NCBI GenBank assembly: GCA_009693335.1
Contig: SHXK01000002.1
Span: forward strand, 339-64,338
DNA from: Betaproteobacteria bacterium
GTDB lineage: Bacteria; Pseudomonadota; Gammaproteobacteria; Burkholderiales; SG8-39
DNA length: 64,000 nucleotides
Direction of reading: 5' to 3'
The position numbers and the translations under genes were made by a program. The notes below the pieces were generated by a model, which saw only the letters and a program-made list of their open reading frames with translations, was not told where the DNA came from and did not search any database. Of this stretch, positions 15,447 through 31,658 are shown one piece after another. Every line of letters starts with the position of its first letter. The stretch's first letter is position 1.

Positions 15447-16379
15447 TCAAGCGCCAAGAATCTGCCCGGGCTGGACGCTGCCCACGGCCAGCAGGTCGCC
15501 GGCAGCGACCTTTTTGCCGTCGCCCAGCTTGGCGCGCAGCACCTCGATGCGGCCGCCTTGGGCGCTCACCTGGAAGCTGGTCGGGCCGATTGCGACGATT
15601 TCGCCGATTTTTCCCTTGACCGCGCCGAAGCTACGCACCGGCACCTTTTTGCAATCAAAGATCTGCAGTTTGATACCGTTCAGGGTCGTCCAGGCCCCGG
15701 GGGCCGGATTGCAGCTGCGGATCAGGTTGTAGACCGCATCGATGTGGTTGGCCCAATGGATGCGTGCCTCGCTCTCGCGGAACCAGCCTTCGTAGGTCGC
15801 CTGCGACTCGTCCTGCACCAGCTCCCGGTGACTGCCGGCGACCACCAGGTCGGCGGCCTCCAGCATCGCCTGCACCCCCATCGGGAACAGGCGGTCGAAA
15901 TACACCGTGCCGAGCGTGTCGTCCGGACTAATGCGGGTCTCTTTTTGCAGGATCACGGGACCCTCGTCCAGGCCATCGGTCGGGCGAAAGATGGTCAGGC
16001 CGGTGGTGGTTTCGCCACGTGAAATCGGCCAGTTGATCGAACTCGGGCCGCGGTACTTCGGCAGCAGCGACGGGTGGTACTGGATGGTGCCGTGCTTGGG
16101 GATGGTCACGAAGTCCTGCGGCGCGAACTGCAGCACGAAAGCCATGATGCCGATCTGCACCTCCAGCCCTTTGAGCGCCGCTTTGGCGTCATCGTTCTTC
16201 AGCGACGGAAACTGGAATACCTGGATGCCTTTTTCTCCGGCGGCGGTCTTCAGCACATCAGGCTTGGCGCCCGGTTTTTCCGGCGCGCAGAACACGCCGG
16301 CCACCTCGTCGCCACGCGCCACAAACGCTTCCAGCACGGCCTTGCCAAAATCCTGCTGACCAACGATGGCGATTTTCAT
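15447..16379 (-). CDS. Formyltransferase-fold protein (Formyl_trans_N + Formyl_trans_C), closest by eye to the N-terminal hydrolase domain of 10-formyl-THF dehydrogenase
   Basis: 310 aa: MKIAIVGQQDFGKAV..., TIQYHPSLLPKYRGPSSINW (His without the N-x-H Asn of Fmt/PurN), TDGLDEGPV (Asp), ATYEG, PGAWT. The ATG shares one nt with the frc TGA. Confidence 0.85.
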   Translation of the reverse strand: MKIAIVGQQDFGKAVLEAFVARGDEVAGVFCAPEKPGAKPDVLKTAAGEKGIQVFQFPSLKNDDAKAALKGLEVQIGIMAFVLQFAPQDFVTIPKHGTIQYHPSLLPKYRGPSSINWPISRGETTTGLTIFRPTDGLDEGPVILQKETRISPDDTLGTVYFDRLFPMGVQAMLEAADLVVAGSHRELVQDESQATYEGWFRESEARIHWANHIDAVYNLIRSCNPAPGAWTTLNGIKLQIFDCKKVPVRSFGAVKGKIGEIVAIGPTSFQVSAQGGRIEVLRAKLGDGKKVAAGDLLAVGSVQPGQILGA

Positions 16380-17650
16380 CAGACCGCCCTTTTCGGCGGC
16401 AGCGAGAAAGCGCCCGCATTCTTCAGCGAGCCGATCTTGGCGTCGTCGTAAGCGAGCACTTCTTTAAGGATCTCGTCGGTGTGCTCGCCCAGCGTCGGCG
16501 AGCGCTCGATCTTCGCCGGCGAGGCCGACAGCTTGATCGGCATGCCGACATTCCACCACTTGCCGCGCTGCGGGTGATCGAGCTCGACCCACATCTCGCG
16601 GCCGCGCACATGCTCGTCGTTGGCGAGATCTTCGGTGCTCATGATCGGCCCGCAGGGCACGTCAAGCGGATTGAGGATCGCCATCAGTTCGCGCTTGGTG
16701 TATTTCTCGGCGAACTTGTTGATCAGCGTCCACATCAGTTGCTGGTTCTTGCGCCGCTCCGCGATGCCGGCAAGTTGCGGGTTGCTGGCCATGTCGGGCA
16801 TGCCGACATCCGGACCGATGCGCGTGGCCAGATCCTCCCACACCGCCTCCTGCACCACCACATAGAGCCAGTCGTTCGGACCGTGCGGTTTGCAGTGGAT
16901 GGCGTTGCCCAACTGGCCGCCACCGGAATCGTTACCCGCACGCGGCACATCGCCCATGTTCTGATAGGTTGGCACTGAGTACTCCGACATTGCCTGTCGC
17001 GTGAGGCGCTGGTGGTCGCGGAATTTAACGCGACACAGATTCATCACCCCGTCCATCATCGCCACTTCCACGTACTGCCCCTGACCCGTCTTGTCCGCCT
17101 GCCGGAGCGCCGCGAGCAGGCCGATCGCCAAGTGCAGGCCAGTACCCGAATCGCCGATCTGTGCACCAGTGACGAAGGGCGGGCCCTCCGGCACCCCGGT
17201 GGTGCTCATCGCGCCGCCCATCGCCTGCGCGACATTTTCGTAGGCCTTGAACTCGGCGTAGGGCCCGCTGGAGCCGAAGCCCTTGATCGAACCCATCACG
17301 ATCTTCGGGTTGAGTTCGTGGATCTTCTCCCAGGTGAAGCCAAAGCGGTCGAGCACGCCGGGGCCGAAGTTCTCCATGATCATGTCGCATTTCTTCAGCA
17401 GGTCGACAAACACCTGCTTGCCCTCGTCGCTTTTCATGTTGACGGTGATCGAGCGCTTGTTGCAGTTGAGCATGGTGAAGTACAGGCTGTCGGCCTTGGG
17501 TATATCGCGCAGTTGCCCGCGTGTCGCGTCGCCTGCCGGGTTCTCGAACTTGATCACGTCAGCCCCCATCCAGGCGAGCAGTTGCGAGCAGGTCGGCCCC
17601 GCTTGCACGTGGGTCATGTCGAGAATGCGGACTCCCTTAAGTGCTTCCAT
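16379..17650 (-). CDS. frc: Formyl-CoA:oxalate CoA-transferase
   Basis: Family III CoA-transferase with a Frc/YfdW-like N-terminus (GVRILDMTHVQAGPTCSQLLAWMGADVIKFE). Sits immediately downstream of oxc. Confidence 0.92.
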   Translation of the reverse strand: MEALKGVRILDMTHVQAGPTCSQLLAWMGADVIKFENPAGDATRGQLRDIPKADSLYFTMLNCNKRSITVNMKSDEGKQVFVDLLKKCDMIMENFGPGVLDRFGFTWEKIHELNPKIVMGSIKGFGSSGPYAEFKAYENVAQAMGGAMSTTGVPEGPPFVTGAQIGDSGTGLHLAIGLLAALRQADKTGQGQYVEVAMMDGVMNLCRVKFRDHQRLTRQAMSEYSVPTYQNMGDVPRAGNDSGGGQLGNAIHCKPHGPNDWLYVVVQEAVWEDLATRIGPDVGMPDMASNPQLAGIAERRKNQQLMWTLINKFAEKYTKRELMAILNPLDVPCGPIMSTEDLANDEHVRGREMWVELDHPQRGKWWNVGMPIKLSASPAKIERSPTLGEHTDEILKEVLAYDDAKIGSLKNAGAFSLPPKRAV

Positions 17651-17666: not shown

Positions 17667-19421
17667 CTATTTCTTTTTTGCGGTCGGATTCAGGCTCGTG
17701 ATGCGGCCGCTTTCGGTGCCGGCGGTTTCGTCGATGACAGCATTGATGAGGGTGGGCTTGCCCGAACGGATGGCTGCTTCCATGGCCTGGCGCAACTCGG
17801 CCGGCTTGGTGACGTGTACCCCAATGCCACCGAAAGCCTCCATCAGCTTGTCATAGCGCGCCCCCTTGACGAATACGGTGGGCGCCACATCGGGGCCGCC
17901 GGTCGGATTGACATCCGTCCCCCCGTAGACGCCGTTATTGTTGAAGATCACCACGCAGACCGGCAGGTTGTAGCGGCAAATAGTCTCCACTTCCATGCCG
18001 GAGAAGCCAAAAGCGCTGTCGCCCTCGATCGCGATCACCGGCTGGCCGCTGACCACCGCGGCGGCGACGGCGAAGCCCATGCCAATGCCCATGATGCCCC
18101 AGGTACCCACGTCCAGGCGCTTGCGCGGTCGGTACATGTCGACGATGCTGCGGGTGAAGTCGAGTGCGTTAGCGCCTTCGTTGACCAGAATGGCCTCCGG
18201 GTTGGCCTTGATGATGTCACGCACTACGTTCAGCGCGCTGTGAAAATTCATCGGCGCCGGATCACGTGCCAAGGTCTCGGCCATCTTGGCGAGGTTCTTC
18301 CCCTTGCGCTCGGCAATGGCCGAGAGCCACTCGGCCGGCGGCTTGGCCCAGTGGGTGCCCGCGGCCTTGATGGCGGTCAGCAGCGCCGAGACGCAGGAAC
18401 CGATGTCGCCCACCAGCGGGGCTTCGATACGGACGTTGCTGTCCATTTCCTGCGGCGAAATATCGATCTGGATGAACTTTTGTGCGCCCCAGGCCTTAGC
18501 GTCCTTGCCGCCCCAGGTCTTGCCCTTGCCTTGGGAGAGCAGCCAGTTCAGACGCGCGCCGACCAGCATCACCACGTCAGCCTCGGGCAGCACGAAAGAA
18601 CGGGCGGCAGCAGCAGACTGCTCGTGCGTGTCGGGCAGCAGGCCCTTGGCCATGGACATGGGCAGGTAGGGGATGCCGGTGCGCTCGATGAGGGCGCGGA
18701 TGTCCGCGTCGGCCTGTGCGTAAGCGGCGCCCTTGCCCAGCAAGATCAGCGGACGCTTGGCGCTTTTCAGGAGTTCGAGGGCGCGTTGCACCGCGTCCTC
18801 CGCCGGAATCTGGCGCGGCGCCGGATCGACCACCTTGATCAGCGATTTTCTGCCGGCTTCCGCGTCCATGGACTGGGCAAAGAGCTTCGCCGGCAGGTCG
18901 AGATAGACGCCGCCCGGGCGGCCGGAGACGGCGGCGCGGATCGCGCGCGCCACGCCCACCCCGATGTCCTCGGCGTGCAGCACGCGGAAAGCGGCCTTGG
19001 CGAGCGGCTTGGCGATGGCCAACTGGTCCATCTCCTCGTAGTCTCCCTGCTGCAGGTCGACGATCTCGCGCTCGCTGGAGCCGCTGATGAGGATCATCGG
19101 GAAGCAATTGGTGGTGGCGTTGGCGAGAGCCGTCAAGCCGTTGAGGAAGCCGGGGGCGGACACCGTCAGACAGATGCCCGGCTTTTGCGTCATGAAACCG
19201 GCGATGGCGGCGGCGTTGCCGGCGTTTTGCTCGTGGCGGAACGAAATCACGCGCAAGCCTGCGGCCTGGGCCTTGCGGGTGAGGTCAGTGATCGGAATGC
19301 CGGGCAGACCGAAAATAGTGTCGATGCCGTTCAATTTAAGGGCATCGATGACCAGGTGAAAACCGTCGGTCACTGGTGATGGTGCATCGGTTACTACGAC
19401 TTGAGGTTCGACAGCGCCCAT
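17667..19421 (-). CDS. oxc: Oxalyl-CoA decarboxylase (ThDP-dependent)
   Basis: The listed ORF was trimmed to the ATG at 19421. ThDP motif [31 protein letters not shown]; Oxc-like N-terminus [23 protein letters not shown]. Confidence 0.92.
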
Positions 19422-19476
19422 AAAGACCCCTCTCGGAAAAGTCAAAAATGATAGTTTTTCACTCCTGCCGCCGACC

Positions 19477-19490
19477 TTGACTGCGGTCAA
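19477..19490. promoter_or_regulatory. FNR/CRP-type palindromic box TTGACTGCGGTCAA between oxc and the Crp/Fnr gene
   Basis: Perfect TTGAC-N4-GTCAA. The box centre is 62.5 nt from the oxc ATG. Exactly 23 nt further on the minus strand is the -10-like TATCAT (19448..19453). The box ends 29 nt before the regulator ATG. Confidence 0.55.
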
Positions 19491-19518
19491 GCTTTTTCAG
19501 TCTAATGAGCAGTTCCCC

Positions 19519-20130
19519 ATGACCGCCATCGCCAACCACCCGCAACGCAACACCCTGCGCCTGCAATTGCGCGAGAACCTGCTCCTCTGGGCCATGCGCC
19601 CGGAGCAGTGGGAGGCGCTGGAACCCCTGCTGGTGATAGGCGACTACCGCAAAGGCGACCGTCTGGCGCGACAGGGGGATGAGGAAATGGTCCAGTTCTT
19701 CATCCTCGAGGGCATGGTCAAGCGCGTGGTGTCAAACCCCGAGGGCCACGAAATGATCCTGCGCTTCGCCGCCGAAACCGAGATGGACACCTCGTTCGCA
19801 GCCTGGCGCCTGCGCACCCCCATCCCTTATTCTATCGTCGCGGTAACCAAGGCGCGCACTGCCGAGCTACCGATGCCGCGGTGGGTCGAGTTTCTCGAGC
19901 GGCAGCCTGAGGTGAAGTTGAAGTTCGAGTACCAGGTCATGAAGCTGATGTCGGAGGTGATGGCGCACACCATCACCCTGCACCTGCTGGACGCCCCCGG
20001 ACGGCTGTCGCGGTTTCACCGCAAGCATCCTGAGCTCGCCGGCAAGATCCCGAAGAAGGAACTGGCCGCCTACCTCAACCTGACTCCCGAAACCCTCTCC
20101 CGCCTCAAGCAGAAGCTCGGCCGTCAATGA
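19519..20130 (+). CDS. Crp/Fnr family transcriptional regulator (no cysteines)
   Basis: cNMP-binding-like beta-roll (GDRLARQGDEEMVQFFILEGMV) and C-terminal HTH KKELAAYLNLTPETLSRLKQKL with an FNR-type E--SR recognition helix. The ATG at 19519 is preferred over the TTG at 19477, which lies inside the box. Confidence 0.85.
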   Translation: MTAIANHPQRNTLRLQLRENLLLWAMRPEQWEALEPLLVIGDYRKGDRLARQGDEEMVQFFILEGMVKRVVSNPEGHEMILRFAAETEMDTSFAAWRLRTPIPYSIVAVTKARTAELPMPRWVEFLERQPEVKLKFEYQVMKLMSEVMAHTITLHLLDAPGRLSRFHRKHPELAGKIPKKELAAYLNLTPETLSRLKQKLGRQ

Positions 20131-20177
20131 AAAGGGCCGGGTTAGCGCAGGGGCCTAAGCGCCAGCGCGAGCCGCTT

Positions 20178-21689
20178 TCAGATCCCCCGGCGCAGCTTCG
20201 ACCAGAGCATTGACATCAGCGGCCAGAAGAGCAGAAACAGCGCCAGCCCGGTCAGCGAGCCCACCAGCGCATTGGAGAAGAACACCGACATGTCGCCCTG
20301 CGCCACCAACATCGCCTGCCTGAACGAGGATTCGGCCCGATCCCCCAGCACGATCGCCAGCACTAGTGGTGCCAGCGGGTACTGCAGCTTCTTGAAGACG
20401 TAACCCATGACGCCAAACACCAGCATCATCCAGACATCGAAGATCGAGTTGTGCACGGTGTAGGCGCCGATGGCGCAGATCACCATGATGATAGGCGCGA
20501 TCACCGAGAACGGCACTCGCAGGATGGCGGCGAACAGCGGCACGCAGGTAAGCACCACGATCAGTCCCACGATATTGCCGAGGTACATGCTGGCGATCAG
20601 GCCCCACACGAAATCCTTCTGCTCAACGAACAGCAGCGGGCCGGGCTGCAAGCCCCAGATGAGCAAGCCGCCCAGCAGCACCGCCGCAGTCGGCGACCCA
20701 GGCACACCTAGCGTGAGCATCGGCAGCAGCGCAGCGGTGCCCGCCGCGTGCGCCGCTGTTTCGGGCGCCACCACACCCTCGACTATGCCAGTGCCGAACT
20801 TGTCGCCGTCCTTCGAGAAGCGGCGCGCCACGCCGTAACTCATGAAGGAAGCCGGGGTGGCGCCGCCCGGCACGATGCCCATAAAGCAGCCGACCGCCGA
20901 GGAACGAATGGACGTCAACCAGTACTTCGGCAATTCCTTCCAGGTCTCGAGTACGACTTTTATGTTCATCTTCGCCTGCGCGCCCTTGAAAGCGAGGCCC
21001 TCCTCCAGCGTGAGCAATATTTCGCCGATGCCGAACAGGCCAATGACCGCGATCAGGAAATCGAATCCGGTCAGCAGGTGCGTCGAGCCGAAGGTCAGGC
21101 GCAACGTACCGGTCACCGGGTCGGTGCCGACTGCGGCGAGTGCGAAACCGAGCATCATCGTGGCCAGCGTCTTGAACGGCGGCTCCTTCGACATGCCGAC
21201 GAAGGCGCAGAAAGTGAGCAGGTAGACCGCGAAAAACTCCGGCGGCCCGAATTCGAGGGCGAATCCCGCCACGATCGGCGACAGGAAGGTGATCACGATC
21301 ACCGCCACCAGCGCGCCGACAAACGACGAAGTGAAGGCTGCTGTCAGCGCCGCCCCAGCGCGCCCTTTCTGCGCCAGCGGATAGCCGTCGAAGGTGGTCG
21401 CCACCGACCAGGGTTCGCCGGGAATATTAAAGAGGATGCTGGTGATCGCCCCACCGAAGAGCGCGCCCCAATAGATGCAGGAGAGCAGGATGATCGCCGA
21501 GGTGGTGCCGCCAGGCGCCTGCGACATGCTGAAGGTGAGCGGCAGCAGAATCGCCACGCCGTTGGCCCCGCCCAGTCCGGGCAGCACGCCGATGATCACG
21601 CCGAGCACGATGCCGGTGAACATCAGCGCGATGTTCTTCAGCGTCAGCACGACAACGAAGCCCTGCAGCAGCGACTGGATTTCGTCCAT
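20178..21689 (-). CDS. tctA: Tripartite tricarboxylate transporter large permease TctA
   Basis: 503-aa polytopic membrane protein with the TctA pattern (GVLPGLGGANGVAILLPLTF, GIVPGGATPASFMSY). Confidence 0.9.
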   Translation of the reverse strand: MDEIQSLLQGFVVVLTLKNIALMFTGIVLGVIIGVLPGLGGANGVAILLPLTFSMSQAPGGTTSAIILLSCIYWGALFGGAITSILFNIPGEPWSVATTFDGYPLAQKGRAGAALTAAFTSSFVGALVAVIVITFLSPIVAGFALEFGPPEFFAVYLLTFCAFVGMSKEPPFKTLATMMLGFALAAVGTDPVTGTLRLTFGSTHLLTGFDFLIAVIGLFGIGEILLTLEEGLAFKGAQAKMNIKVVLETWKELPKYWLTSIRSSAVGCFMGIVPGGATPASFMSYGVARRFSKDGDKFGTGIVEGVVAPETAAHAAGTAALLPMLTLGVPGSPTAAVLLGGLLIWGLQPGPLLFVEQKDFVWGLIASMYLGNIVGLIVVLTCVPLFAAILRVPFSVIAPIIMVICAIGAYTVHNSIFDVWMMLVFGVMGYVFKKLQYPLAPLVLAIVLGDRAESSFRQAMLVAQGDMSVFFSNALVGSLTGLALFLLFWPLMSMLWSKLRRGI

Positions 21690-21706: not shown

Positions 21707-22213
21707 TCAGTTGAGCCCCAACAGGGCCTCGAGCGGACCCTTGGGCAAGGGAATCCTGAACCAGAACTCGAAAATCAGGAAAAACACCAGGCTGTTGCCG
21801 ATCGACACCGCAGCCACCTTCCACCACGTGTACTTGCCGAGCCAGCGCATGAATAAGGCGACGAACAGTGCCGAGGCCACGTAAATGCCGATCCAGCCGA
21901 TCAGCCCGACATACACGGCGGTCGGCACCAGCACCGACAACACCAACTTCAACTGCTCGACCTCGACGAAACTGCGATTCTTTTCCTTAGTCTCGGCGAG
22001 CCCCGCCATCAGGTTGATCAACGCGGAAACGCAGATGATGACGCCGATGTAGAAGGGGAAATACCCTGTCTGGGGGCCATCCTCACGCCAGCCAAAACCG
22101 AGCCGCGCGCTGTCGAAGATAACGATAGCGCCGAGCGCAAAAAAAACGGCTGCCACCACCGTTTCGGCGACCCGGTAACGAAATGCCGGCTTTCCCCCGC
22201 TGCCTTCAGTCAT
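21707..22213 (-). CDS. tctB: Tripartite tricarboxylate transporter small subunit TctB
   Basis: The listed ORF was trimmed to the ATG at 22213. Four hydrophobic helices, located between tctC and tctA. Confidence 0.75.
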   Translation of the reverse strand: MTEGSGGKPAFRYRVAETVVAAVFFALGAIVIFDSARLGFGWREDGPQTGYFPFYIGVIICVSALINLMAGLAETKEKNRSFVEVEQLKLVLSVLVPTAVYVGLIGWIGIYVASALFVALFMRWLGKYTWWKVAAVSIGNSLVFFLIFEFWFRIPLPKGPLEALLGLN

Positions 22214-22232
22214 GCCCGCCCCTAATAGCAAA

Positions 22233-22254
22233 AGCGGGGGCCACGACCCCCGCT
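22233..22254 (-). terminator. Intercistronic hairpin (attenuator) between tctC and tctB
   Basis: 8-bp GC stem AGCGGGGG/CCCCCGCT with a 6-nt loop, followed on the minus strand by TTTGCTATT. This is typical of a partial terminator after a binding-protein gene. Confidence 0.4.
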
Positions 22255-22272
22255 CGTCTCGGTGCACTCAGA

Positions 22273-23286
22273 CTACTGTCCGGCGATAAACCTCGCGGCC
22301 TTCATCAACTGAATATGTCGCGCCTCTTCGCGCGCAACCCAGTCCGCGTATTCCTTGCCCTCGAGCGAAGTCTGATTGAACGCCCCGCGCTCCATCAGGT
22401 CCTTCCACTCCGGCGTGGCTTGGACTTTCCTGAACAATTCAACGTAGTACTGCACTTGGGCCGGCGTCACGCCACCCGGCATGAAAATGCCGCGCAGCAT
22501 CAGGTAGTCCACATCCAGCCCGCTTTCCTTGCAGGTCGGAATGTCGGACCAGGACATGGTGTCAGTGACCTTGGTCTTGTAAGGCATGCGCTTGGGGTCG
22601 AACACGCACAAGGGCTTCAGCTTGCCGCCGCGCCAGTGCGCCACCGCCTCAATCGGGTTGTTCACCGTGGAATCCGCGTGGTTGCCCACCAGCTGGACCG
22701 CCACGTCCCCGCCGCCCTTGAACGGAACGTAGATGAACTTGGTGCCGGTCAACTGCTCGATCGCGGCGGTGATGATCTGGTCTTCCTGTTTCGCGCCGGT
22801 GCCCGCCATCTTGAACTTGTTCGGGCCCGCCGCCTTGGCTGCTGCGATGTATTCCTTGGCCGACTTGTAAGGCTTGGACACGTTGGTCCAGAGGACGAAC
22901 TGGTCGAGCGCCAGCATCTTGACGGGGGTCAGGTCACGCCAGTTAAACGGCACCCCGGTAGCAAGTGGCGTGGTGAACAGATTCGACAGTGTAATGATGA
23001 TCTTGTGCGGGTCGCCCTGCGCGCCCTTGACGTCAAGAAAGCCCTCGGCGCCCGCGCCGCCCGCCTTGTTGACCACCACCATCGCCTGCTTCATCAGCTT
23101 GTGCTTGGCGATGATGCCCTGCGCAGCGCGCGCCATCTGGTCCGCGCCGCCGCCGGTGCCGGCGGGAATGATGAATTCGACCGTCTTGGTGGGCTCCCAA
23201 GCCTGGGCAAGAACCGCTTGCGGCAGCGCCGCCATAGCCGTCATGGCCACCATCGATCCTGCAACACGTTCGAACAGATTTCGCAT
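22273..23286 (-). CDS. tctC: Tripartite tricarboxylate transporter substrate-binding protein TctC (Bug family)
   Basis: The listed ORF was trimmed to the ATG at 23286 with a GGAGG SD. Signal peptide, then the Bug motif VEFIIPAGTGGGADQMAR. Confidence 0.9.
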   Translation of the reverse strand: MRNLFERVAGSMVAMTAMAALPQAVLAQAWEPTKTVEFIIPAGTGGGADQMARAAQGIIAKHKLMKQAMVVVNKAGGAGAEGFLDVKGAQGDPHKIIITLSNLFTTPLATGVPFNWRDLTPVKMLALDQFVLWTNVSKPYKSAKEYIAAAKAAGPNKFKMAGTGAKQEDQIITAAIEQLTGTKFIYVPFKGGGDVAVQLVGNHADSTVNNPIEAVAHWRGGKLKPLCVFDPKRMPYKTKVTDTMSWSDIPTCKESGLDVDYLMLRGIFMPGGVTPAQVQYYVELFRKVQATPEWKDLMERGAFNQTSLEGKEYADWVAREEARHIQLMKAARFIAGQ

Positions 23287-23341
23287 AATCGCTCCTCCTA
23301 TCGGGAACTGGGATTCTGATCGCCGCGTGGCGTGTTCGCCC

Positions 23342-23355
23342 TTGATGACGGTCAA
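23342..23355. promoter_or_regulatory. FNR/CRP-type box TTGATGACGGTCAA upstream of tctC
   Basis: Near-palindrome overlapping the terC stop codon. The centre is 62.5 nt from the tctC ATG, and 23 nt downstream on the minus strand is the -10-like CAGAAT (23313..23318). Confidence 0.5.
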
Positions 23356-24107
23356 GAATTCCCTGCTTGTTCGACCGGCCCCCCTTTTACGGCGGCTGCC
23401 TGCCGTTTCGCAAGCCACAGCCCCCAAGCGACCACGATCACCGCGCCAGCCACCCCAGCCACCAGCTCCAGGTTCAAGCCGCCCAGCTTGGGCTTGCCAC
23501 CATCGATCTGGATCCCCGAGAGGCCATTCATCCATGCCAGCGCCACCGGGTCCGTGACCAGCATCTCGCCGGCGACCAAGCCGATCAGCGCCGCTCCAAT
23601 GGTGATGATCGCCGGGTAGCGATCCATCAGGGTCACCAGCAGCGTGGCGCCGAACACCACCAGCGGGATCGAGATCGCCAAGCCCAGAATCAGCAGCGTC
23701 ATGCTGCCGCCCGCCGCCGCGGCCACGGCAATCACGTTGTCCAGGCTCATCACCAGGTCGGCGATCAAGATAGTCTTGATTGCCGCCGTCAGGTTGTCGC
23801 TGGCGTTGACATCGTCACCCTGGTGCGCGGGCACCAGCAGCTTGATGCCGATCCAGAACAGCAGCAGGCTGCCGACGATTTTCAGCCAGGGCAGGGTCAG
23901 CAGAGCGACGGCGAATACCGTAAGGATGATGCGCAGCACCACCGCCGCGCCGGCGCCCCACAAGATCGCCTGCTTCTGCTGCTTGGGCGGCAAGGAACGG
24001 GCCGCCAGTGCGATCACCACCGCGTTATCGCCTGACAGAACGATGTTGACCCCGATGATTTTCAGCAGGCCGATCCAGAATACCTGCGTGGCGAGTTCTT
24101 CAAGCAT
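23352..24107 (-). CDS. TerC family integral membrane protein
   Basis: TerC signature LSGDNAVVIALAA and a second SLDNVIAVAAAA repeat. Starts 8 nt after the fhs stop. Confidence 0.85.
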   Translation of the reverse strand: MLEELATQVFWIGLLKIIGVNIVLSGDNAVVIALAARSLPPKQQKQAILWGAGAAVVLRIILTVFAVALLTLPWLKIVGSLLLFWIGIKLLVPAHQGDDVNASDNLTAAIKTILIADLVMSLDNVIAVAAAAGGSMTLLILGLAISIPLVVFGATLLVTLMDRYPAIITIGAALIGLVAGEMLVTDPVALAWMNGLSGIQIDGGKPKLGGLNLELVAGVAGAVIVVAWGLWLAKRQAAAVKGGPVEQAGNS

Positions 24108-24115
24108 GGGCTATT

Positions 24116-25786
24116 TTAAAACAGTCCGACCACTTTGCCATCCACCAGGTCGATTTTTTCCGCCGAGGGCACCTTCGGCAAGCCGGGCATGGTCATGATG
24201 TCGCCGCAGATCATGACCACGAACTCGGCGCCCGCCGCCAGGCGCACCTCGCGCACGTTGAGCACGTGATCGGTGGGCGCGCCGCGCGTCGCCGCGTTGG
24301 TGGCGAAGGAAGACTGGGTCTTCGCCACGCACACCGGGTAGTGGCCATAGCCTTCGTCTTGCAAGCGTTTGATCTGGGCGCGCACCTTCGCATCCGCGGT
24401 CACATCTGCCGCCCGGTACACCTTCTTGGCGATCTTGTTGATCTTGTCCCAGAGGGTGTCGGCATCCTCATATACGAAGCGCGGGGTCGAGGGCTGGTCG
24501 CACAGGCCGACCACGATCCTCGCCAGTTCGGCGGCGCCCTTGCCGCCGTCGCCCCAGTGCGTCGCCAGCACCACCGGGACGCCCAGCTTTTTCATTCTCG
24601 CGTTCAACATCTCAAGTTCCGCCGGCGTGTCGAGGTTGAAGCGGTTGATCGACACCACACAGGGGATGGCGTACACCTGGGAAACATTCTCGACGTGGCG
24701 CTCCAGATTCACCAGGCCCTTTTCCAGCGCGGCCAGGTTTTCCTTGTTGACTTCCTTCACGTCCACACCGCCGTGGTATTTCAGCGCCCGCACAGTGGCC
24801 ACGATCACCGCGGCATTCGGCCGCAAGCCAGTCTTGCGGCATTTAATATCGAGGAACTTCTCACCGCCCAAGTCGGCGCCAAAACCGGCTTCGGTGACCA
24901 CGTAGTCGGCGAGCTTCAACGCACTCTGGGTGGCGATCACCGAATTGCAGCCATGCGCGATGTTGGCGAACGGACCGCCATGGATGAAAGCCGGATTGCC
25001 TTCCAGCGTTTGCACCAAGTTGGGGGCCAGCGCGTCCTTGAGCAACACGGTCATCGCGCCGTGCGCCTTGAGGTCACGCGCATGCACCGGCTTGTTGTCG
25101 CGCGTATAGGCAACCACGATGCTACCGAGGCGTTTTTTCAGATCATCGAGCGAAGTCGAGAGACAGAAAATCGCCATCACCTCCGAGGCCACCACGATGT
25201 CGAAGCCGTCCTGCCGCGGGTAACCGTTGGCGGTACCCCCCAGCGCGACCACGATCTCGCGCAAAGCCCGGTCATTCATGTCGACCACGCGCTTCCACTG
25301 GATGCGGCGCACGTCGATGCCCAGTTCGTTGCCCTGGGTGATGTGGTTGTCGAGCAGCGCCGCGAGCAGATTGTTGGCCAGCGCGATAGCGGAGAAATCC
25401 CCCGTGAAGTGCAGGTTGATGTCCTCCATCGGCACCACCTGCGCATAACCGCCCCCCGCCGCGCCGCCCTTCATGCCGAATACCGGCCCCAGGGAAGGTT
25501 CGCGCAAACAGATCATCGCTTTCTTGCCGATGTGGTTGAGCGCGTCGCCCAGACCGACCGTGGTGGTGGTCTTGCCCTCGCCGGCCGGCGTCGGCGACAT
25601 CGCCGTGACCAGGATCAGCTTGCCGTCCTTTTTTGACTTGAGGGTATCGAGATACGGCAGCGACACCTTCGCCTTGTAGTGCCCGTAGGGCTCGAGGTGA
25701 TCTTCGGCGATGCCGAGCTTGTCCTGCGCCACTTTGGCTATGCGCTGCATTTTCGCTGCTTGCGCGATCTCGATATCGGACGACAT
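24116..25786 (-). CDS. fhs: Formate--tetrahydrofolate ligase
   Basis: 556 aa with the P-loop [15 protein letters not shown]; FTHFS pattern throughout. Confidence 0.96.
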
Positions 25787-25813
25787 GGATCTTCTGCTCC
25801 TGTTGGTTTCTTC

Positions 25814-28624
25814 TTAGGGGTAGATCTCGGCCAGCGAACGGCCCTTGCCGTAACCCGGATTGCCTGGCCGTGCACCGCCCTTGCTGACCTTCACGGCGCA
25901 ATATTTGAACTCGGGGATCTTGCCGAAGGGATCGAGCTTCGGGTTGGTGAGCATGTTGGCCGCCGCTTCGTAGAACGCGAACGGGATGAACACCGCACCG
26001 CGCGGCGTTCCTTCGTCGGCTCTTGCATACAAAGAAATCTGGCCCCTGCGCGAAGTCACTGTGAGGATATCGCCCGGTCTGGCGTCCAGCGCGGCGATAT
26101 CCAGCGGATGCATCGAGCACACCGGTTCAGGTTCGAGGGCGTCCAGCACTCCCGCCCGTCGCGTCATGGCGCCGGTATGCCAGTGTTCCAGCTGCCGCCC
26201 CGTGATCAGGACCACGGGGTAGGCCTCATCCGGCCGCTCGTCGGCCCGAATCAGGTCCGCTGGCACGAACTTGGCGCGACCAGTGGCGGTCGGAAACACC
26301 TCGGTGAACACCACCGTGGTCCCCGGATCGCCCTCGTTCTCGCAGGGGTAGACCACGCAGGAATCGCGCTCCAGGCGCTCCCAGGTGATGCCGGCGATCG
26401 AATTCATGCCTTTGCGCATTTCATTCCAGACTTGTTCCGGTTTGTCATAGGACCAGTTCAAACCCAGTCGTTGCGCGAGTTGATTGATGATCCAGAGATC
26501 CGCCTTGGCCTCACCGGGGGGCTCAATCGCCTTGCGGCCTAGCTGCACCATGCGGTCGGTATTGGTGACGGTGCCGTCTTTTTCCGGCCAGGCCGTGGCC
26601 GGCAGCACCACGTCGGCGAGATAGCAGGTCTCGGTGAGGAAAATGTCCTGCACCACCAAATGCTGGAGCTTGGCCATCGCGGCGCGTGCATGGTCCGCGT
26701 CCGGATCGGACATGGCCGGGTTCTCGCCCATCACGTACATGCCGCGGATGCGACCGGCGTCGGCTTCCTGCATGATCTCGACCACCGTGAGGCCGGGCTT
26801 GTTTTCCAGCGTGGTTCCCCACAGTGCCTCGAAGCGCTGCTGGGCCTCGGGACTGTCCACCCGCTGGTAATCCGGAAACATCATCGGGATCAGGCCCGAG
26901 TCCGAGGCCCCTTGCACGTTGTTCTGGCCACGCAGCGGATGCAGACCGGTGCCCACGCGCCCCACCTGCCCGGTCATCAAGGAGAGCGCAATCAGGCAGC
27001 GCGCATTGTCGGTGCCGTGCACGTGCTGGGAGATCCCCATGCCCCAGAGAATCATCGAGCCCTTCGAGGTAGCGAACAGGCGCGCCACCTCGCGAATGGT
27101 CTGCGCCGGAATGCCGCAGATCGGCGCCATTTTCTCGGGCGAGAAACTCTTGGCGTTTTCTTTCAGGGCCTCAAAGCCGCTGGTTCTATCGGCAACAAAC
27201 TTCTTATCCACCAGATCTTCGTCGATAATGGCGTGGATCATCGCGTTCAGCAGCGCCACATCGGTGTCGGCGTTGAACTGCAGGAAGTAGGCCGCGTGGC
27301 GCGCGAGCTCGGTGCGGCGCGGGTCGGCGATGATCAGCTTCACGCCGTTCTTCGCCGCGTTCTTCATCCAGGTGGCGGCCACCGGATGGTTGACGGTGGG
27401 GTTGGCGCCGATGATGAACACCACCTCAGCGTTCATCACGTCGCTCACCTGGTTGGAAACCGCGCCCGAGCCCACGCCTTCGAGCAGCGCGGCGACTGAG
27501 GATGCGTGGCACAGGCGCGTGCAGTGATCGACGTTGTTCTGGCCGAATCCCGTGCGCACCAGCTTCTGGAACAAGTACGCTTCTTCGTTCGAGCCTTTGG
27601 CGGAACCGAAACCGGCCAGCGCAAAGCGGTCCTGATCCTTGATTTTTCTCAAGCCTGCAGCGGCGAAATCCAGGGCTTCTTCCCAACTGGCTTCGCGGAA
27701 CGCCTCTTTCCAGTTCGCCGGATCGACGGTGAAATCCGCCGATTTCTTCATGCCTGCTTTTCTGATCAACGGCTTGGTCAGGCGTTGCGGGTGCTGCACG
27801 TAGTCGAAACCGTAGCGCCCCTTGACGCACAGGCGTCCGTGGTTGGACGGGCCGTCGCGGCCGCTGACGAACTTGATGACGTTGCTGCTCTTTTGCACGT
27901 GGTAAGTAAGCTGACAGCCAACGCCGCAAAACGGGCACACCGAGTCCACTTTCTTGTCCACTACTTCCAGGCCCGCCTCGCGCGCGGGCATCAGCGCGCC
28001 GGTGGGACAGGCCTGCACGCACTCGCCACAGGCAACGCAAGTGGAGGCGCCCATCGGGTCGTCCTGGTCAAAGACGATCTTGGCGTGCTCGCCACGGAAC
28101 GCAAAACCAATGACATCGTTCACCTGCTCCTCACGGCAGGCGCGCAGGCAGCGTGTGCACTGGATGCAGGCGTCCAGATTCACCGCGATCGCCGGATGGG
28201 AAATGTCGGCTTTCGGCTGTTGCCTCGCTGCGAATCTCGGTTTGCCAACCCCAAGCTTGCGTGCCCATACGTCAACCTTGTTGTTGAGCGTGTGCTGCGT
28301 CTGCGGCATGTCGGAGAGCAGCAGCTCGAGCACCATTTTCTGCGAGGCCAGCGCGCGCGGACTGTCGGTGCTGACCTCCATGCCTTGCGTCGGATAACGG
28401 CAGCAGGAAGGTGCCAGCACGCGCTCGCCCTTGACCTCGACCACGCAGGCGCGGCAGTTGCCATCGGGGCGCAGCGTGCGCGAGTAGCACAGATGCGGGA
28501 TGGAAATCCCGTTGCGGCGCGCCGTCTCGATGAGGAGCTCATCGGGCCGACCGATTACCGTTCGGCCGTTCAACTTGAACTCGATCGGCAGCGTCGCCAA
28601 CTGCTGGTTGCTGATGCGGTCCAT
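25814..28624 (-). CDS. fdhA: NAD-dependent formate dehydrogenase alpha subunit (Mo/W-bisPGD, Fdh1A/FdsA type)
   Basis: N-terminal NuoG-like 2Fe-2S (CYSRTLRPDGNCRACVVEV), 4Fe-4S motifs (CIQCTRCLRACRE, CVACGECVQACPTGAL, CPFCGVGCQL) and a molybdopterin oxidoreductase core with an active-site Cys (HCTRLCHASS). No in-frame TGA. Confidence 0.95.
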   Translation of the reverse strand: MDRISNQQLATLPIEFKLNGRTVIGRPDELLIETARRNGISIPHLCYSRTLRPDGNCRACVVEVKGERVLAPSCCRYPTQGMEVSTDSPRALASQKMVLELLLSDMPQTQHTLNNKVDVWARKLGVGKPRFAARQQPKADISHPAIAVNLDACIQCTRCLRACREEQVNDVIGFAFRGEHAKIVFDQDDPMGASTCVACGECVQACPTGALMPAREAGLEVVDKKVDSVCPFCGVGCQLTYHVQKSSNVIKFVSGRDGPSNHGRLCVKGRYGFDYVQHPQRLTKPLIRKAGMKKSADFTVDPANWKEAFREASWEEALDFAAAGLRKIKDQDRFALAGFGSAKGSNEEAYLFQKLVRTGFGQNNVDHCTRLCHASSVAALLEGVGSGAVSNQVSDVMNAEVVFIIGANPTVNHPVAATWMKNAAKNGVKLIIADPRRTELARHAAYFLQFNADTDVALLNAMIHAIIDEDLVDKKFVADRTSGFEALKENAKSFSPEKMAPICGIPAQTIREVARLFATSKGSMILWGMGISQHVHGTDNARCLIALSLMTGQVGRVGTGLHPLRGQNNVQGASDSGLIPMMFPDYQRVDSPEAQQRFEALWGTTLENKPGLTVVEIMQEADAGRIRGMYVMGENPAMSDPDADHARAAMAKLQHLVVQDIFLTETCYLADVVLPATAWPEKDGTVTNTDRMVQLGRKAIEPPGEAKADLWIINQLAQRLGLNWSYDKPEQVWNEMRKGMNSIAGITWERLERDSCVVYPCENEGDPGTTVVFTEVFPTATGRAKFVPADLIRADERPDEAYPVVLITGRQLEHWHTGAMTRRAGVLDALEPEPVCSMHPLDIAALDARPGDILTVTSRRGQISLYARADEGTPRGAVFIPFAFYEAAANMLTNPKLDPFGKIPEFKYCAVKVSKGGARPGNPGYGKGRSLAEIYP

Positions 28625-28633
28625 CGCTTCCCT

Positions 28634-30304
28634 TTATCCCACTTCCTGTGGGAAGTATTTCATGACGCTCAACGCCGGGTTGGGCGCCGCCTGCCCCAGA
28701 CCGCAAATTGAAGCGTCCATCATGGCCTGTGAGAGCTCATTGAGCAACGGCTGGTTCCATTGCTTGGCTTGCATGAGTCCCAGCGCCTTGGCGGTGCCCA
28801 CCCGGCAGGGGGTGCATTGACCGCAGGACTCCTCCTTGAAGAACTTCATCAGGTTCTTGGCGGCATTGGACGCTTGATCTCTGTCGGAAAGAATCACCAC
28901 TGCCGCAGAACCGATAAAGCAGCCATGCGCCTGCAAAGTGTCGAAGTCGAGCGGAATATCGCCAAGTTTTTCCGGCAAGATGCCTCCGGAGGCACCGCCC
29001 GGCAGGTAGGCATAAAACTGGTGCCCGTCAAGCATGCCCCCGCAGTATTCCTGTATCAATTCCTTGACGGTGATTCCCGCGGGCGCGATGTGGACGCCGG
29101 GTTTCTGTACGCGGCCCGAGACCGAGAAGGAGCGCAGGCCCTTGCGGCCGTTCCTGCCCTGCGAGGCGAACCAGGCGCCGCCCTGCTCCACGATCTCGCG
29201 CACCCAGTACACCGTTTCCAGGTTGTGCTCTAGCGTCGGATAACCGAACAGGCCCACCTGCGCGACATACGGCGGCCGCAGACGCGGCATGCCGCGCTTG
29301 CCTTCGATGGATTCGATCATCGCCGATTCTTCGCCGCAGATGTACGCCCCGGCGCCGCGGCGTAGATGAATCGGCGGCAACGGAATTTTTGCTTGCCTCT
29401 TCAGCGTCGCGAGCTCTTTTTCAAGAATCGCCCGGCAACCGGCATACTCGTCGCGCAGATAAATGTAAATTTCGCCGACGCCTGCACACCACGCCGCGAC
29501 CAGCATGCCTTCCAGAAAGCGGTGCGGATCGCGCTCCAGAAAGTAGCGATCCTTGAAAGTGCCGGGCTCGCCTTCGTCAATGTTGACCGCCATCAGGCGC
29601 GGCGCCGGCTCCGCGGCGACGATCCGCCACTTGCGGCCGGTCGGGAACCCCGCACCGCCCAGGCCGCGCAACGCCGAGTCCTCCATGATCTTGGTGATTT
29701 CCTCGCGCGAGTGCTTGCCCGAGAGGCAGTCGGCGATCAGCCGGTAGCCGCCTGCTTTCTTGTAGGCCTTGAAGTCGAGGTAAGTGGTTACTGGGCAACG
29801 GGTTTGTTTCGCGGCAATTGCTTTTTCGACTGAAGAAACGGAAGCCTGCAGAACCGGATGCTGCCCAACCACAGCCACCGGTGCGGATTCGCAGCGCCCC
29901 ACGCAAGGTGCGGGTATCACGCGCACGTCTTTGCCTAAAGAAAGATTCTTGAGTAGCTGTTGCGCGCCCGCCAATTCACAAGAAAGCGAATCGCAGACCC
30001 GCACCGTCAGCGCCGGGGGGGGCGTCTCACCTTCCTTGACCACGTCGAAGTGATGATAGAAAGTCGCGACTTCGTAGACTTCGGTCTGCGACAAACGCAT
30101 TTCCTCGGCCAGCGCCGCCAGGTGCGCCGACGACAGGTGGCCGTAGCGGTCCTGTATCTTGTGCAGCTGCTCGATCAGCAGGTCGCGTCGACGCGGGTCT
30201 ACGCCGCTCGCGCGGCGTCCGTCCTCCAGCAGCGCGCGCACCTCGTCGCGGGCCTGCGGCTCGACGCCGCGGCCCTTGAGCCCGAATTTTCCTTTCTTTT
30301 TCAC
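28634..30304 (-). CDS. fdhB: NAD-dependent formate dehydrogenase beta subunit (fused NuoE-like + NuoF-like, Fdh1B type)
   Basis: N-terminal NuoE-like thioredoxin-fold 2Fe-2S region. NuoF-like GLGGAGFPTGRKW (FMN/NAD) and ESCGQCTPCRVG (4Fe-4S). The only available start is the GTG at 30304. Confidence 0.88.
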   Translation of the reverse strand: MKKKGKFGLKGRGVEPQARDEVRALLEDGRRASGVDPRRRDLLIEQLHKIQDRYGHLSSAHLAALAEEMRLSQTEVYEVATFYHHFDVVKEGETPPPALTVRVCDSLSCELAGAQQLLKNLSLGKDVRVIPAPCVGRCESAPVAVVGQHPVLQASVSSVEKAIAAKQTRCPVTTYLDFKAYKKAGGYRLIADCLSGKHSREEITKIMEDSALRGLGGAGFPTGRKWRIVAAEPAPRLMAVNIDEGEPGTFKDRYFLERDPHRFLEGMLVAAWCAGVGEIYIYLRDEYAGCRAILEKELATLKRQAKIPLPPIHLRRGAGAYICGEESAMIESIEGKRGMPRLRPPYVAQVGLFGYPTLEHNLETVYWVREIVEQGGAWFASQGRNGRKGLRSFSVSGRVQKPGVHIAPAGITVKELIQEYCGGMLDGHQFYAYLPGGASGGILPEKLGDIPLDFDTLQAHGCFIGSAAVVILSDRDQASNAAKNLMKFFKEESCGQCTPCRVGTAKALGLMQAKQWNQPLLNELSQAMMDASICGLGQAAPNPALSVMKYFPQEVG

Positions 30305-30339
30305 ACTCCGATTATCGGCTAGCAGCAGCGCGAAAATTC

Positions 30340-30353
30340 TTGACTGCGGTCAA
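30340..30353. promoter_or_regulatory. FNR/CRP-type box TTGACTGCGGTCAA upstream of fdhB
   Basis: The 14-mer is identical to the oxc box. Exactly 23 nt downstream on the minus strand is GATAAT (30311..30316), which ends 6 nt before the fdhB GTG. Confidence 0.55.
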
Positions 30354-30398
30354 TACCGGTCAATACCGGCCAATGCCAGTCAATATCCGTCAATATCC
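30349..30398. repeat. Five tandem 10-bp units carrying a GTCAAT half-site
   Basis: GTCAATACCG GTCAATACCG GCCAATGCCA GTCAATATCC GTCAATATCC. The first unit is the right arm of the palindromic box, and the last units overlap the stop of the P450 gene. Confidence 0.8.
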
Positions 30399-31658
30399 CA
30401 CCCGCAGCGGCAGCGACTTCATGCCGCGGAACACCATGGAATTAAGCCACTCGAGGCGCGCCTCGGCTACCGAGAGCTCGATGCGTGGCCAGTGCTTCAG
30501 CACCGCAGGCAACGCCACCTGGCCTTCCATGCGCGCGAGCGGAAAACCAAGGCAGATATGCAGGCCGAAGCCGAAACTCAGGTGCGCGGGTCCGCCGCGC
30601 GCCAGCTGCAGCCGGTCAGGCTGCGCATAGACCTCGGGGTCGCGGTTGGCGGCGTTGAGCATCAGGAACACCCGCTCGCCGGGCTGCAAACGCTTGCCAC
30701 ACATTTCCTGCTCGACCTTGACGATGCGCACCTGCGCGCCGCTCGGCCCGTCGTAGCGCAACAGCTCTTCGATGGCGCGCGGCGCAAGGCTCGCATCCTG
30801 GCGCAGGGCCTGCAACTCTCCGGGAAAACGCAACAACGACAGCATGCCGTTGGCGATGTGGTTGGTGGTGGTCTCGTGGCCGGCGAACAGCAGCAGGATG
30901 CAGGTTGCGATCAGCTCGTCTTCTGTAAGCCGGTCGCCGTTGTCTTCGAGATGAACCAGTTGCGACAACAGGTCTGACCTTGGCGTTTTCTTTCTGTCCT
31001 GGATGAGTTCGCGAAAAAAATCTGCCATCTCGTGCGTCGCGGCCTCGGCGATAACGTACTTCTCGGGCGACATGCGCGAGCTGCCAATGAACAGCGCCAT
31101 GTCGTCCGACATGCGCTTGACCTTCGCCAACGCCTCGCGTGGCACGCCCAGCATCGACATGATCACGAGCGCGGGCAAGAGGCCCGCGAAATCGGCGATG
31201 AAGTCGATCTCGCCGGTGTCGCCGATGCGCTCGCGTATGTTTCCGAACAGCCACTCGACCAGCTCTTCGGCGGTCGAGCGCATGGCATTCATCGACTGGA
31301 GATGGAATACCTTGCTCGTCAGGCGGCGCAGCCGCGTATGTTCCGGCGGGTCGCGGAAAACCATCCAGGTCGACAAGTAACGAATGATGTCGCCGATGCG
31401 CGCCGCTTCCGCGCTCGGCAAGGTGGCAAAGAACGGCCGCATCCGGTCCGACGAAACTCCGGGCTCGAGCAGCACCTGGCGCACATCATCGTAACGCGTC
31501 AGCACCCAGGCCTTGAGGCGCGGGCTCCAGTGCACCGGGTCCTCTTGCCGCAAGCGGTGGTAAAGCGGGAACGGGTCGGCGAGGAATTCCGGTGCCTCGG
31601 GACGAAACTCGATGTTGCTCTTGACCTCCACAACCTGCGGACCAATACGGGGACTCAT
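30390..31658 (-). CDS. Cytochrome P450
   Basis: Heme-thiolate loop FGFGLHICLGFPLA, the I-helix LLFAGHETTTN and the ExxR motif (ELLRYD). Confidence 0.92.
   Translation of the reverse strand: MSPRIGPQVVEVKSNIEFRPEAPEFLADPFPLYHRLRQEDPVHWSPRLKAWVLTRYDDVRQVLLEPGVSSDRMRPFFATLPSAEAARIGDIIRYLSTWMVFRDPPEHTRLRRLTSKVFHLQSMNAMRSTAEELVEWLFGNIRERIGDTGEIDFIADFAGLLPALVIMSMLGVPREALAKVKRMSDDMALFIGSSRMSPEKYVIAEAATHEMADFFRELIQDRKKTPRSDLLSQLVHLEDNGDRLTEDELIATCILLLFAGHETTTNHIANGMLSLLRFPGELQALRQDASLAPRAIEELLRYDGPSGAQVRIVKVEQEMCGKRLQPGERVFLMLNAANRDPEVYAQPDRLQLARGGPAHLSFGFGLHICLGFPLARMEGQVALPAVLKHWPRIELSVAEARLEWLNSMVFRGMKSLPLRVGY

Follow-up and report, generated by a model that had tools for sequence, protein, structure and literature searches.

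Conserved FNR-type boxes beside a cysteine-free CRP/FNR-superfamily regulator: a predicted oxalate and formate regulon of uncultured Burkholderiales

In this work, we describe a predicted oxalate and formate regulon in a stretch of 64,000 nucleotides (nt) of contig SHXK01000002.1 (assembly GCA_009693335.1, Betaproteobacteria bacterium, SG8-39), which is called the window throughout. The system consists of a gene for a 203-amino acid (aa) protein of the CRP/FNR superfamily and of three copies of a box of the type TTGAY-N4-GTCAA, located upstream of the operons oxc-frc-fmtL, tctCBA and fdhB-fdhA-fhs-terC, each at an identical distance from a putative -10 hexamer. We consider it likely that the protein is a local class II activator of these operons. 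As a dimeric CRP/FNR-superfamily factor it would bind CTTGAC-N4-GTCAAG through its FNR-like recognition helix (E191, S194 and R195 of PETLSRL), using one site about 41.5-42.5 base pairs (bp) upstream of the predicted start of each operon, and it would most likely recruit RNA polymerase in class II manner, since the promoters possess a conserved -10 but no -35 element. The oxc box overlaps the putative core promoter of the divergent regulator gene, and its occupancy should lower transcription of the regulator itself. A small-molecule ligand is expected for the N-terminal beta-roll; as effector it would be neither cyclic AMP (cAMP) nor an iron-sulphur (Fe-S) cluster. Such a mechanism is the canonical one of CRP and FNR at class II promoters, while the subfamily, its physiological role and its effector would be new; the advance thus lies in physiology and effector range, not in principle.

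Relatives of the regulator were found in 478 species in a scan with one genome per species, and the best 80 loci were analysed. All of them come from metagenome-assembled genomes (MAGs) of uncultured Burkholderiales/Betaproteobacteria, an SG8_39 MAG included, and their regulators are 76-93% identical to that of the window.

Boxes and promoter geometry

The boxes and the promoter elements predicted around them are as follows.

19477-19490: Box 1, TTGACTGCGGTCAA, between the divergent oxc and regulator genes, within the 16-bp palindrome CTTGAC-N4-GTCAAG
19448-19453, minus strand: predicted oxc -10, TATCAT, 23 nt after Box 1, with a predicted start near 19441-19442
19501-19506, plus strand: putative regulator -10, TCTAAT, 10 nt after Box 1 and 12 nt before the ATG
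23342-23355: Box 2, TTGATGACGGTCAA, upstream of tctC
23313-23318, minus strand: predicted tctC -10, CAGAAT, 23 nt after Box 2
30340-30353: Box 3, TTGACTGCGGTCAA, the same sequence as Box 1, upstream of fdhB
30311-30316, minus strand: predicted fdhB -10, GATAAT, 23 nt after Box 3

The sequences and positions of the three boxes, as well as the 23-nt gap to each of the minus-strand hexamers, had been reported in a preliminary description of this DNA and proved exact. The pattern TTGAY-N4-GTCAA has five matches at these three sites of the window, two of the sites being palindromic. Dinucleotide-preserving shuffles of the window (n = 100) contained 0.13 matches on average and none reached five. The same control was applied to the related loci, where the pattern TTGAY-N4-RTCAA gave 156 boxes in 1.08 Mb of locus DNA from the 80 loci against about one expected from shuffles, so a chance origin of the boxes can be ruled out.

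After mapping of the window proteins, the gene order fmtL-frc-oxc, divergent regulator, tctABC-(terC)-fhs-fdhAB turned out to be almost invariant across the 80 loci. A box lies between oxc and the regulator gene in every one of them, upstream of tctC in 40 and upstream of fhs, between fhs and fdhA, in 30. In the window and in one relative (L011) it stands upstream of fdhB instead of fhs, and in a few loci, where tctABC is missing, upstream of terC. Within 659 kb of aligned coding sequence only one box was present, and the clusters held 155 boxes in 802 kb compared with a single one in 276 kb of flanking DNA, a density more than 50-fold higher. The box thus tracks the operon boundaries of the cluster and is essentially absent elsewhere in these loci. 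The compact regulon proposed in the preliminary description is supported, as a local one, by the relatives, all 80 of which keep the oxc/regulator box and most of which also carry the tctC and fhs/fdhB boxes. Box-anchored alignments extended the element to the 16-bp palindrome CTTGAC-N4-GTCAAG plus one more conserved G, with arms invariant across relatives and a variable N4 loop.

The distance between box and -10 element is conserved as well. Among 73 oxc sites, TATCAT or TACCAT follows the box at 23 nt in 62 and at 22 nt in 10 cases; among 40 tctC sites, nAnAAT is found at 23 nt in 29 and at 22 nt in five; and in all 30 fhs sites the gap is 23 nt, with TATAGT or nACAAT as the -10. The fixed geometry claimed for the window therefore holds in 72/73, 34/40 and 30/30 sites, respectively, at a gap of 22-23 nt. 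The spacer is GC-rich, not conserved in sequence and fixed in length, and no sigma-70 -35/-10 pair was found in the oxc-regulator region 19380-19560. A fixed helical phase to the -10, lack of a -35 and a box centre close to -41.5 are hallmarks of class II promoters of FNR and CRP. The promoters discussed here appear to bear these hallmarks of a class II, activator-dependent layout, as judged by their phase to the -10, the missing -35 and a predicted box centre of -41.5 to -42.5. The latter range follows from the conserved 22-23 nt gap; the centre near -41.5 proposed earlier is in agreement with it, with the reservation that a 23-nt gap gives -41.5 to -42.5 depending on the start.

It had also been pointed out that the oxc and tctC boxes are both centred 62.5 nt from their start codons (19421 and 23286). 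The distances are exact, yet incidental: box-to-start-codon distances in relatives vary from 51 to 279 nt while the box-to--10 gap stays at 22-23 nt, and we rejected the 62.5-nt spacing as a functional constant.

The -10 of the fdhB promoter ends 6 nt before the GTG at 30304, which is the only possible start codon, and L011 (about 20160-20224) shares the layout of box, GATAAT, 6 nt and GTGAAAAA, with the downstream peptide GLKGR conserved. Given this spacing and its retention in L011, the fdhB mRNA is probably leaderless. A -10 placed just 6 nt before a GTG recurs in three box-linked promoters, namely fdhB of the window, fdhB of L011 and a paralog of the regulator described below (L083 2279-2330), a spacing that would yield leaderless mRNAs beginning with GUG. 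An alternative sigma-70-like fdhB promoter at 30363-30336, using a copy of a local repeat as the -35, was discarded; a 9/12 match such as this is as frequent as expected by chance, and L011 does not share it.

On the opposite side of Box 1, the regulator ATG (19519) follows the end of the box by 29 nt, precisely as described before, and this closeness had been taken to imply autoregulation. Related loci carry an A/T-rich element (gtCTAAT, CTAAAAT or CTAGAAT) 5-14 nt beyond the box and mostly 10-13 nt before the ATG. If this element is read as a -10, the box covers the spacer and the -35 region of the regulator promoter. The regulator mRNA leader then appears very short or absent, of at most about 6 nt and devoid of a Shine-Dalgarno sequence. 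Autoregulation by the route implied earlier is plausible on this arrangement, and regulator transcription should decrease when the box is occupied or when RNA polymerase sits at the oxc promoter. The same A/T-rich stretch could alternatively be an UP-like element of the oxc promoter.

The regulator and its closest known systems

The regulator (203 aa, no cysteine, C-terminus ...NLTPETLSRLKQKLGRQ) displays the parts expected of the CRP/FNR superfamily: a cNMP-binding-like beta-roll, a dimerisation helix and a C-terminal helix-turn-helix, the last one matching Pfam HTH_Crp_2 below threshold. The beta-roll is recognised as Pfam PF00027 (cNMP_binding) with 36.5 bits against a cut-off of 27.5. The AlphaFold2 model built from a 45-sequence alignment (predicted local distance difference test, pLDDT, 93.7; predicted template modelling score, pTM, 0.87) comprises the beta-roll at residues 39-118, a long C-helix at 130-156 and a three-helix DNA-binding domain at 159-202 (helices 159-169, 179-185 and 190-202). 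Foldseek returned Clr, Mycobacterium tuberculosis (Mtb) CRP, GlxR, E. coli CRP and FNR with template modelling (TM) scores of 0.7-0.81.

Among the best 120 of more than 7,800 matching database proteins (85-92% identical, about 203 aa), PETLSRL is present in all and cysteine is missing from 118, the other two having one non-conserved cysteine each. The earlier conclusion that a cysteine-free regulator could not hold an FNR-type Fe-S cluster is well founded both for this protein and for these close homologs. FNR proper ligates its [4Fe-4S] cluster by C20, C23, C29 and C122 (E. coli numbering), none of which has a counterpart here. Lack of cysteine is common in binders of FNR-type boxes, such as FixK, DNR and NnrR, and so is unsurprising in itself. 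The designation FNR-type applies to the E--SR recognition helix, the motif by which FNR reads TTGA, and to the TTGA-type box; it does not extend to FNR proper, as the protein represents a separate, short, wing-less branch.

Of the residues by which CRP contacts cAMP, G71, E72, R82, S83, T127 and S128 align in the profile alignment to T91, S92, I102, P103, V147 and M148, respectively. On this alignment canonical cAMP binding is excluded, since none of the six contact residues is kept; the match to the NCBIfam CRP equivalog reaches 31 bits, its cut-off being 266. In place of the phosphate-binding cassette of CRP stands a conserved segment D-T-S-Y-x-A-W...P-Y-S-I, which is also found in non-oxalate paralogs and is therefore not diagnostic of an oxalate ligand.

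Clustering of the family at 50% left 46 representatives below 1e-30, many of them fragments, followed by a few full-length relatives of 34-47% identity and then by generic CRP-like proteins of about 29%. In a collection of plasmids and chromids of cultured organisms only generic CRP-like proteins below 31% identity were detected. Public annotation names the homologs 'CRP-like cAMP-binding protein' or 'Crp/Fnr family transcriptional regulator', and cluster look-ups for the regulator returned the former name only. By these features the regulator is a CRP/FNR-superfamily member with a predicted FNR-like DNA specificity, and strictly neither FNR, CRP, FixK nor DNR.

The known systems differ from it in various respects. 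E. coli FNR and Pseudomonas ANR have the same CRP fold (Foldseek TM 0.77-0.78 to Aliivibrio fischeri FNR), and sequence similarity to FNR is marginal (9qlt, E = 0.007). The E--SR helix and a palindrome of 14 bp, TTGAN-N4-NTCAA, are further features in common; the site of FNR and ANR takes the place of the -35, centred some 41.5 bp ahead of the start, a position that is predicted here too. In contrast to them, the regulator has no N-terminal cysteine cluster, is about 45 residues shorter, lacks a C-terminal wing and would serve a local regulon of three to four operons instead of a global anaerobic one. FixK2, DNR and NnrR, too, have no Fe-S cysteine cluster, bind TTGA-type palindromes and activate in class II manner, and DNR (3dkw) is a detectable relative of the regulator (E = 2.4e-6), although weaker than 3dn7. 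They have full winged-helix domains, which the regulator does not, and respond to NO, heme or two-component input in nitrogen and oxygen respiration, whereas the regulator is associated with oxalate and formate catabolism and has the distinct D-T-S-Y-x-A-W...P-Y-S-I motif in its effector domain.

CprK of Desulfitobacterium is encoded beside its catabolic genes, senses the pathway substrate and, bound to a 14-bp N4 palindrome, activates several neighbouring promoters in class II manner, an arrangement that is proposed for the regulator as well. It differs by its TTAAT-N4-ATTAA box, by chlorinated phenols as effector and by cysteine-based redox control, and it gave no sequence match in the PDB profile search with the regulator. 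Of the solved structures, 3dn7 comes closest by sequence (E = 1e-12 over residues 27-199). Annotated as a cyclic nucleotide binding regulatory protein, it shares the short architecture ending just after the ...PE-LS... recognition helix, but is only about 25-30% identical and has no link to oxalate genes. Similarly short CRP-like proteins (about 190-200 aa) of Hymenobacter and other Bacteroidota plasmids were the main type of plasmid tblastn matches. With E. coli CRP the regulator has in common the overall fold (TM 0.71-0.75), the cNMP_binding domain and a sequence similarity of E about 1e-7; the recognition helix (RETVGR in CRP, PETLSR here), the spacer (N6 and N4) and the half-sites (TGTGA and TTGAC) are different.

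Does the local regulator use the box?

Comparisons outside the 80 loci bear on the pairing of protein and box. A paralog with 52% identity and an identical LNLTPETLSRL helix is located in a non-oxalate locus, beside RelE/antitoxin and DUF347 genes (L083, L084). Upstream of its gene we found TTGACCGCCGTCAA, 23 nt, TAGCGT, 6 nt and a GTG start, thus both the box and its geometry are reproduced there. Conversely, in cultured Paraburkholderia atlantica, Cupriavidus campinensis and Caballeronia sp., whose Oxc proteins are 75-78% identical, the oxc loci contain no regulator homolog and no tct, fhs or fdh genes, and no box was present within 7 kb on either side with one mismatch allowed. The region upstream of oxc contains a palindrome of different sequence in Cupriavidus campinensis, TGTGATATATCACA (L209 6773-6786), and one related to it, TTGTATATCACAA, at the same position in Caballeronia sp. 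SBC1 (L210), which suggests that another regulator controls oxc in these lineages. The more distant relatives of 34-47% identity (P0124, P0132, P0134 and P0158) lie on short contigs without oxc and have no box upstream of their own genes; among them only the 52%-identical neighbour of P0132 was informative.

Several observations weigh against the local activator model. In the protein, HTH_Crp_2 reaches 19.9 bits and remains below its cut-off of 27, the wing strands are absent and the chain ends 8 residues past the recognition helix PETLSRL. Textbook -41.5 promoters have a 22-nt gap to the -10, and the gap here is 23 nt. The paralog amounts to a single locus in two assemblies, a homology search with it having revealed no clade of its own by which the case could be multiplied, and the cultured controls to three loci. 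The box itself is generic and falls within the FNR/ANR/FixK/DNR consensus: Pseudomonas aeruginosa Anr uses TTGAC-N4-GTCAA at katAp2 (PMC4974557), and in a metagenome scan for CTTGACCNNNGTCAAGG only 8 of 120 sampled stretches belonged to an oxalate cluster. A conventional FNR-like protein of the same organisms could consequently occupy the sites, and the motif alone is unable to identify members of the regulon outside this lineage.

The generic character of the box is the basis of the strongest competing explanation, which we judge unlikely: the boxes would be ordinary FNR/ANR/FixK-type sites of a global oxygen or redox regulator encoded elsewhere, and the adjacent protein would have some other target or be a modulator only. 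Membership of TTGAC-N4-GTCAA in the FNR/ANR box family (PMC4974557) fits it, as does the location of most metagenome matches to the extended box outside oxalate clusters, some of them with a -10 at 22-23 nt. It does not account for the more than 50-fold enrichment of boxes in the cluster over its flanks or for the box in the control region of the regulator gene itself in 80/80 loci. None of the three regulator-less Burkholderiaceae oxc loci carries the box, the divergent paralog with the same recognition helix has it in another context, and the local protein contains the E--SR motif expected for TTGA recognition.

Less probable still, in our estimation, is that the local regulator does bind the boxes but represses until an inducer releases the promoters. 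A site covering about -49 to -35 could block RNA polymerase, and the oxc box overlaps the putative core promoter of the regulator gene. On the other hand, no target promoter has a recognisable -35 or an extended -10, the -35 region being GC-rich and not conserved, so these promoters should be weak without an activator; besides, the strict 22-23 nt phasing is required for activation from one face of the helix and not for simple occlusion.

An RNA or DNA structure in place of a protein site, i.e. a hairpin or terminator-like element, can practically be dismissed: a consensus scan marked 19476-19491 and the following T-run as terminator-like, but the stem has only six pairs, three of them G-C, the T-run is absent in a second group of loci which read GGGTCTAAAATC, the invariant arms around a variable N4 loop display no compensatory changes, the predicted starts of the genes behind the element are downstream of it and no Rfam match was obtained in the window.

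Predicted regulon, effector and neighbouring genes

The cluster comprises the following genes, the regulator gene being the only one on the plus strand.

15447-16379, minus strand: fmtL, Fmt-like formyltransferase with N- and C-terminal domains (Pfam PF00551, PF02911)
16379-17650, minus strand: frc, formyl-CoA transferase (NCBIfam TIGR03253, 551 bits)
17667-19421, minus strand: oxc, oxalyl-CoA decarboxylase, first gene of the oxc-frc-fmtL operon (NCBIfam PRK09259, 1005 bits; TIGR03254, 989 bits)
19519-20130, plus strand: regulator gene, 203 aa, CRP/FNR superfamily
20178-21689, minus strand: tctA (translation and synteny only)
21707-22267, minus strand: tctB (translation and synteny only)
22273-23286, minus strand: tctC (Pfam TctC)
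23352-24107, minus strand: terC (Pfam/NCBIfam TerC)
24116-25786, minus strand: fhs (translation and synteny only)
25814-28624, minus strand: fdhA, formate dehydrogenase alpha subunit (TIGR01591 Fdh-alpha, 749 bits)
28634-30304, minus strand: fdhB, NuoE and NuoF fusion (Pfam/NCBIfam, NuoE/F-type)

The operon fdhB-fdhA-fhs-terC (23352-30304, minus strand) serves formate oxidation and activation. Taken together, the predicted regulon is a coherent pathway, in which uptake by TctABC would be followed by activation of oxalate and its decarboxylation through Frc and Oxc, formate oxidation by FdhAB and entry into the one-carbon pool through Fhs and the Fmt-like protein, with TerC as a further member. 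The tripartite tricarboxylate-type (TTT) transporter TctCBA is the predicted uptake system, oxalate being its presumed substrate. The Fmt-like protein remains below the NCBIfam fmt cut-off. Its closest PDB relatives are hydrolase domains of 10-formyltetrahydrofolate dehydrogenase (E = 1e-55), and it matches more weakly the formyl-tetrahydrofolate:CoA transferase domain of HypX (PMC6802093). The gene is invariably linked to frc and oxc, occupying the same position in about 65 related loci, and its product may shuttle the formyl group between formyl-CoA and tetrahydrofolate, bypassing the ATP-dependent Fhs step.

The logic of the regulon points to oxalate, oxalyl-CoA, formyl-CoA and formate as effector candidates, with none of them favoured by the present data. 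We propose only tentatively, and with some doubt, a remodelled cyclic nucleotide pocket of the regulator as the direct sensor of oxalate, oxalyl-CoA or formyl-CoA. If it were so, it would be the first ligand-responsive transcription factor of oxalotrophy and, for oxalate or a CoA thioester, a new effector class of the CRP/FNR superfamily. Oxalate is a major carbon flux in soil. Our literature searches found no dedicated bacterial oxalate regulator of the CRP/FNR or any other family, and a 2024 review considers oxc and frc regulation understudied, with only pH effects described in a few models (PMC13409138). To judge from its gene neighbourhood and sites, the protein is the first good candidate for a transcription factor dedicated to oxalate use in bacteria. 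The system is testable, as it consists of a soluble protein of small size, an operator of 16 bp and three promoters, and its arrangement is conserved in hundreds of species of uncultured Burkholderiales. Confirmation would yield a sensor and promoter pair for oxalate or formyl-CoA and a marker of active oxalotrophy in metatranscriptomes, and membership of the regulon would give functions to the TTT transporter, to TerC and to the Fmt-like formyltransferase.

Some features of individual loci remain to be mentioned. In the window, the TGA stop codon of terC (23352-23354) falls within the promoter-distal (TTGAC) half-site of Box 2, thus the fdhB-fdhA-fhs-terC unit ends directly at the tctC promoter. 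The scan detected nothing terminator-like between the two, and read-through from that unit into tctCBA is possible. The tctC leader of about ten relatives (L026, L027, L030, L034, L035, L048, L049, L066, L074 and L080) contains a small and conserved hairpin, GCACCAC...GAA...GGTGCGC, with compensatory changes in three of eight predicted pairs (example L026 13581-13739, minus strand); it has no Rfam match and is absent from the short tctC leader of the window.

In some relatives (L040 10583-12180; L042 about 9498) genes for an anion transporter of the CitMHS family and, after it, for a universal stress protein are inserted between tctC and fhs. An additional box, TTGATTTCGGTCAA when read in gene direction, precedes the transporter gene there by about 136 nt, which indicates that the regulon would be able to recruit a second transporter type.

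At 30347-30395 a 10-bp unit (CGGTCAATAC) is repeated in tandem 4.9 times. The array starts inside the upstream half-site of Box 3 and extends into the stop codon of a cytochrome P450 gene, so that GTCAA recurs once per helical turn. It is absent from L011, the one relative sharing the fdhB promoter, and may have arisen by slippage or may supply additional half-sites. The P450 gene (30390-31658) is located directly upstream of Box 3 on the same strand, and beyond it lies a second gene for a TctC/Bug-family binding protein (31655-32623, from translation). A P450 homolog with 77% identity is also present near fdh genes in the metagenome locus L185.

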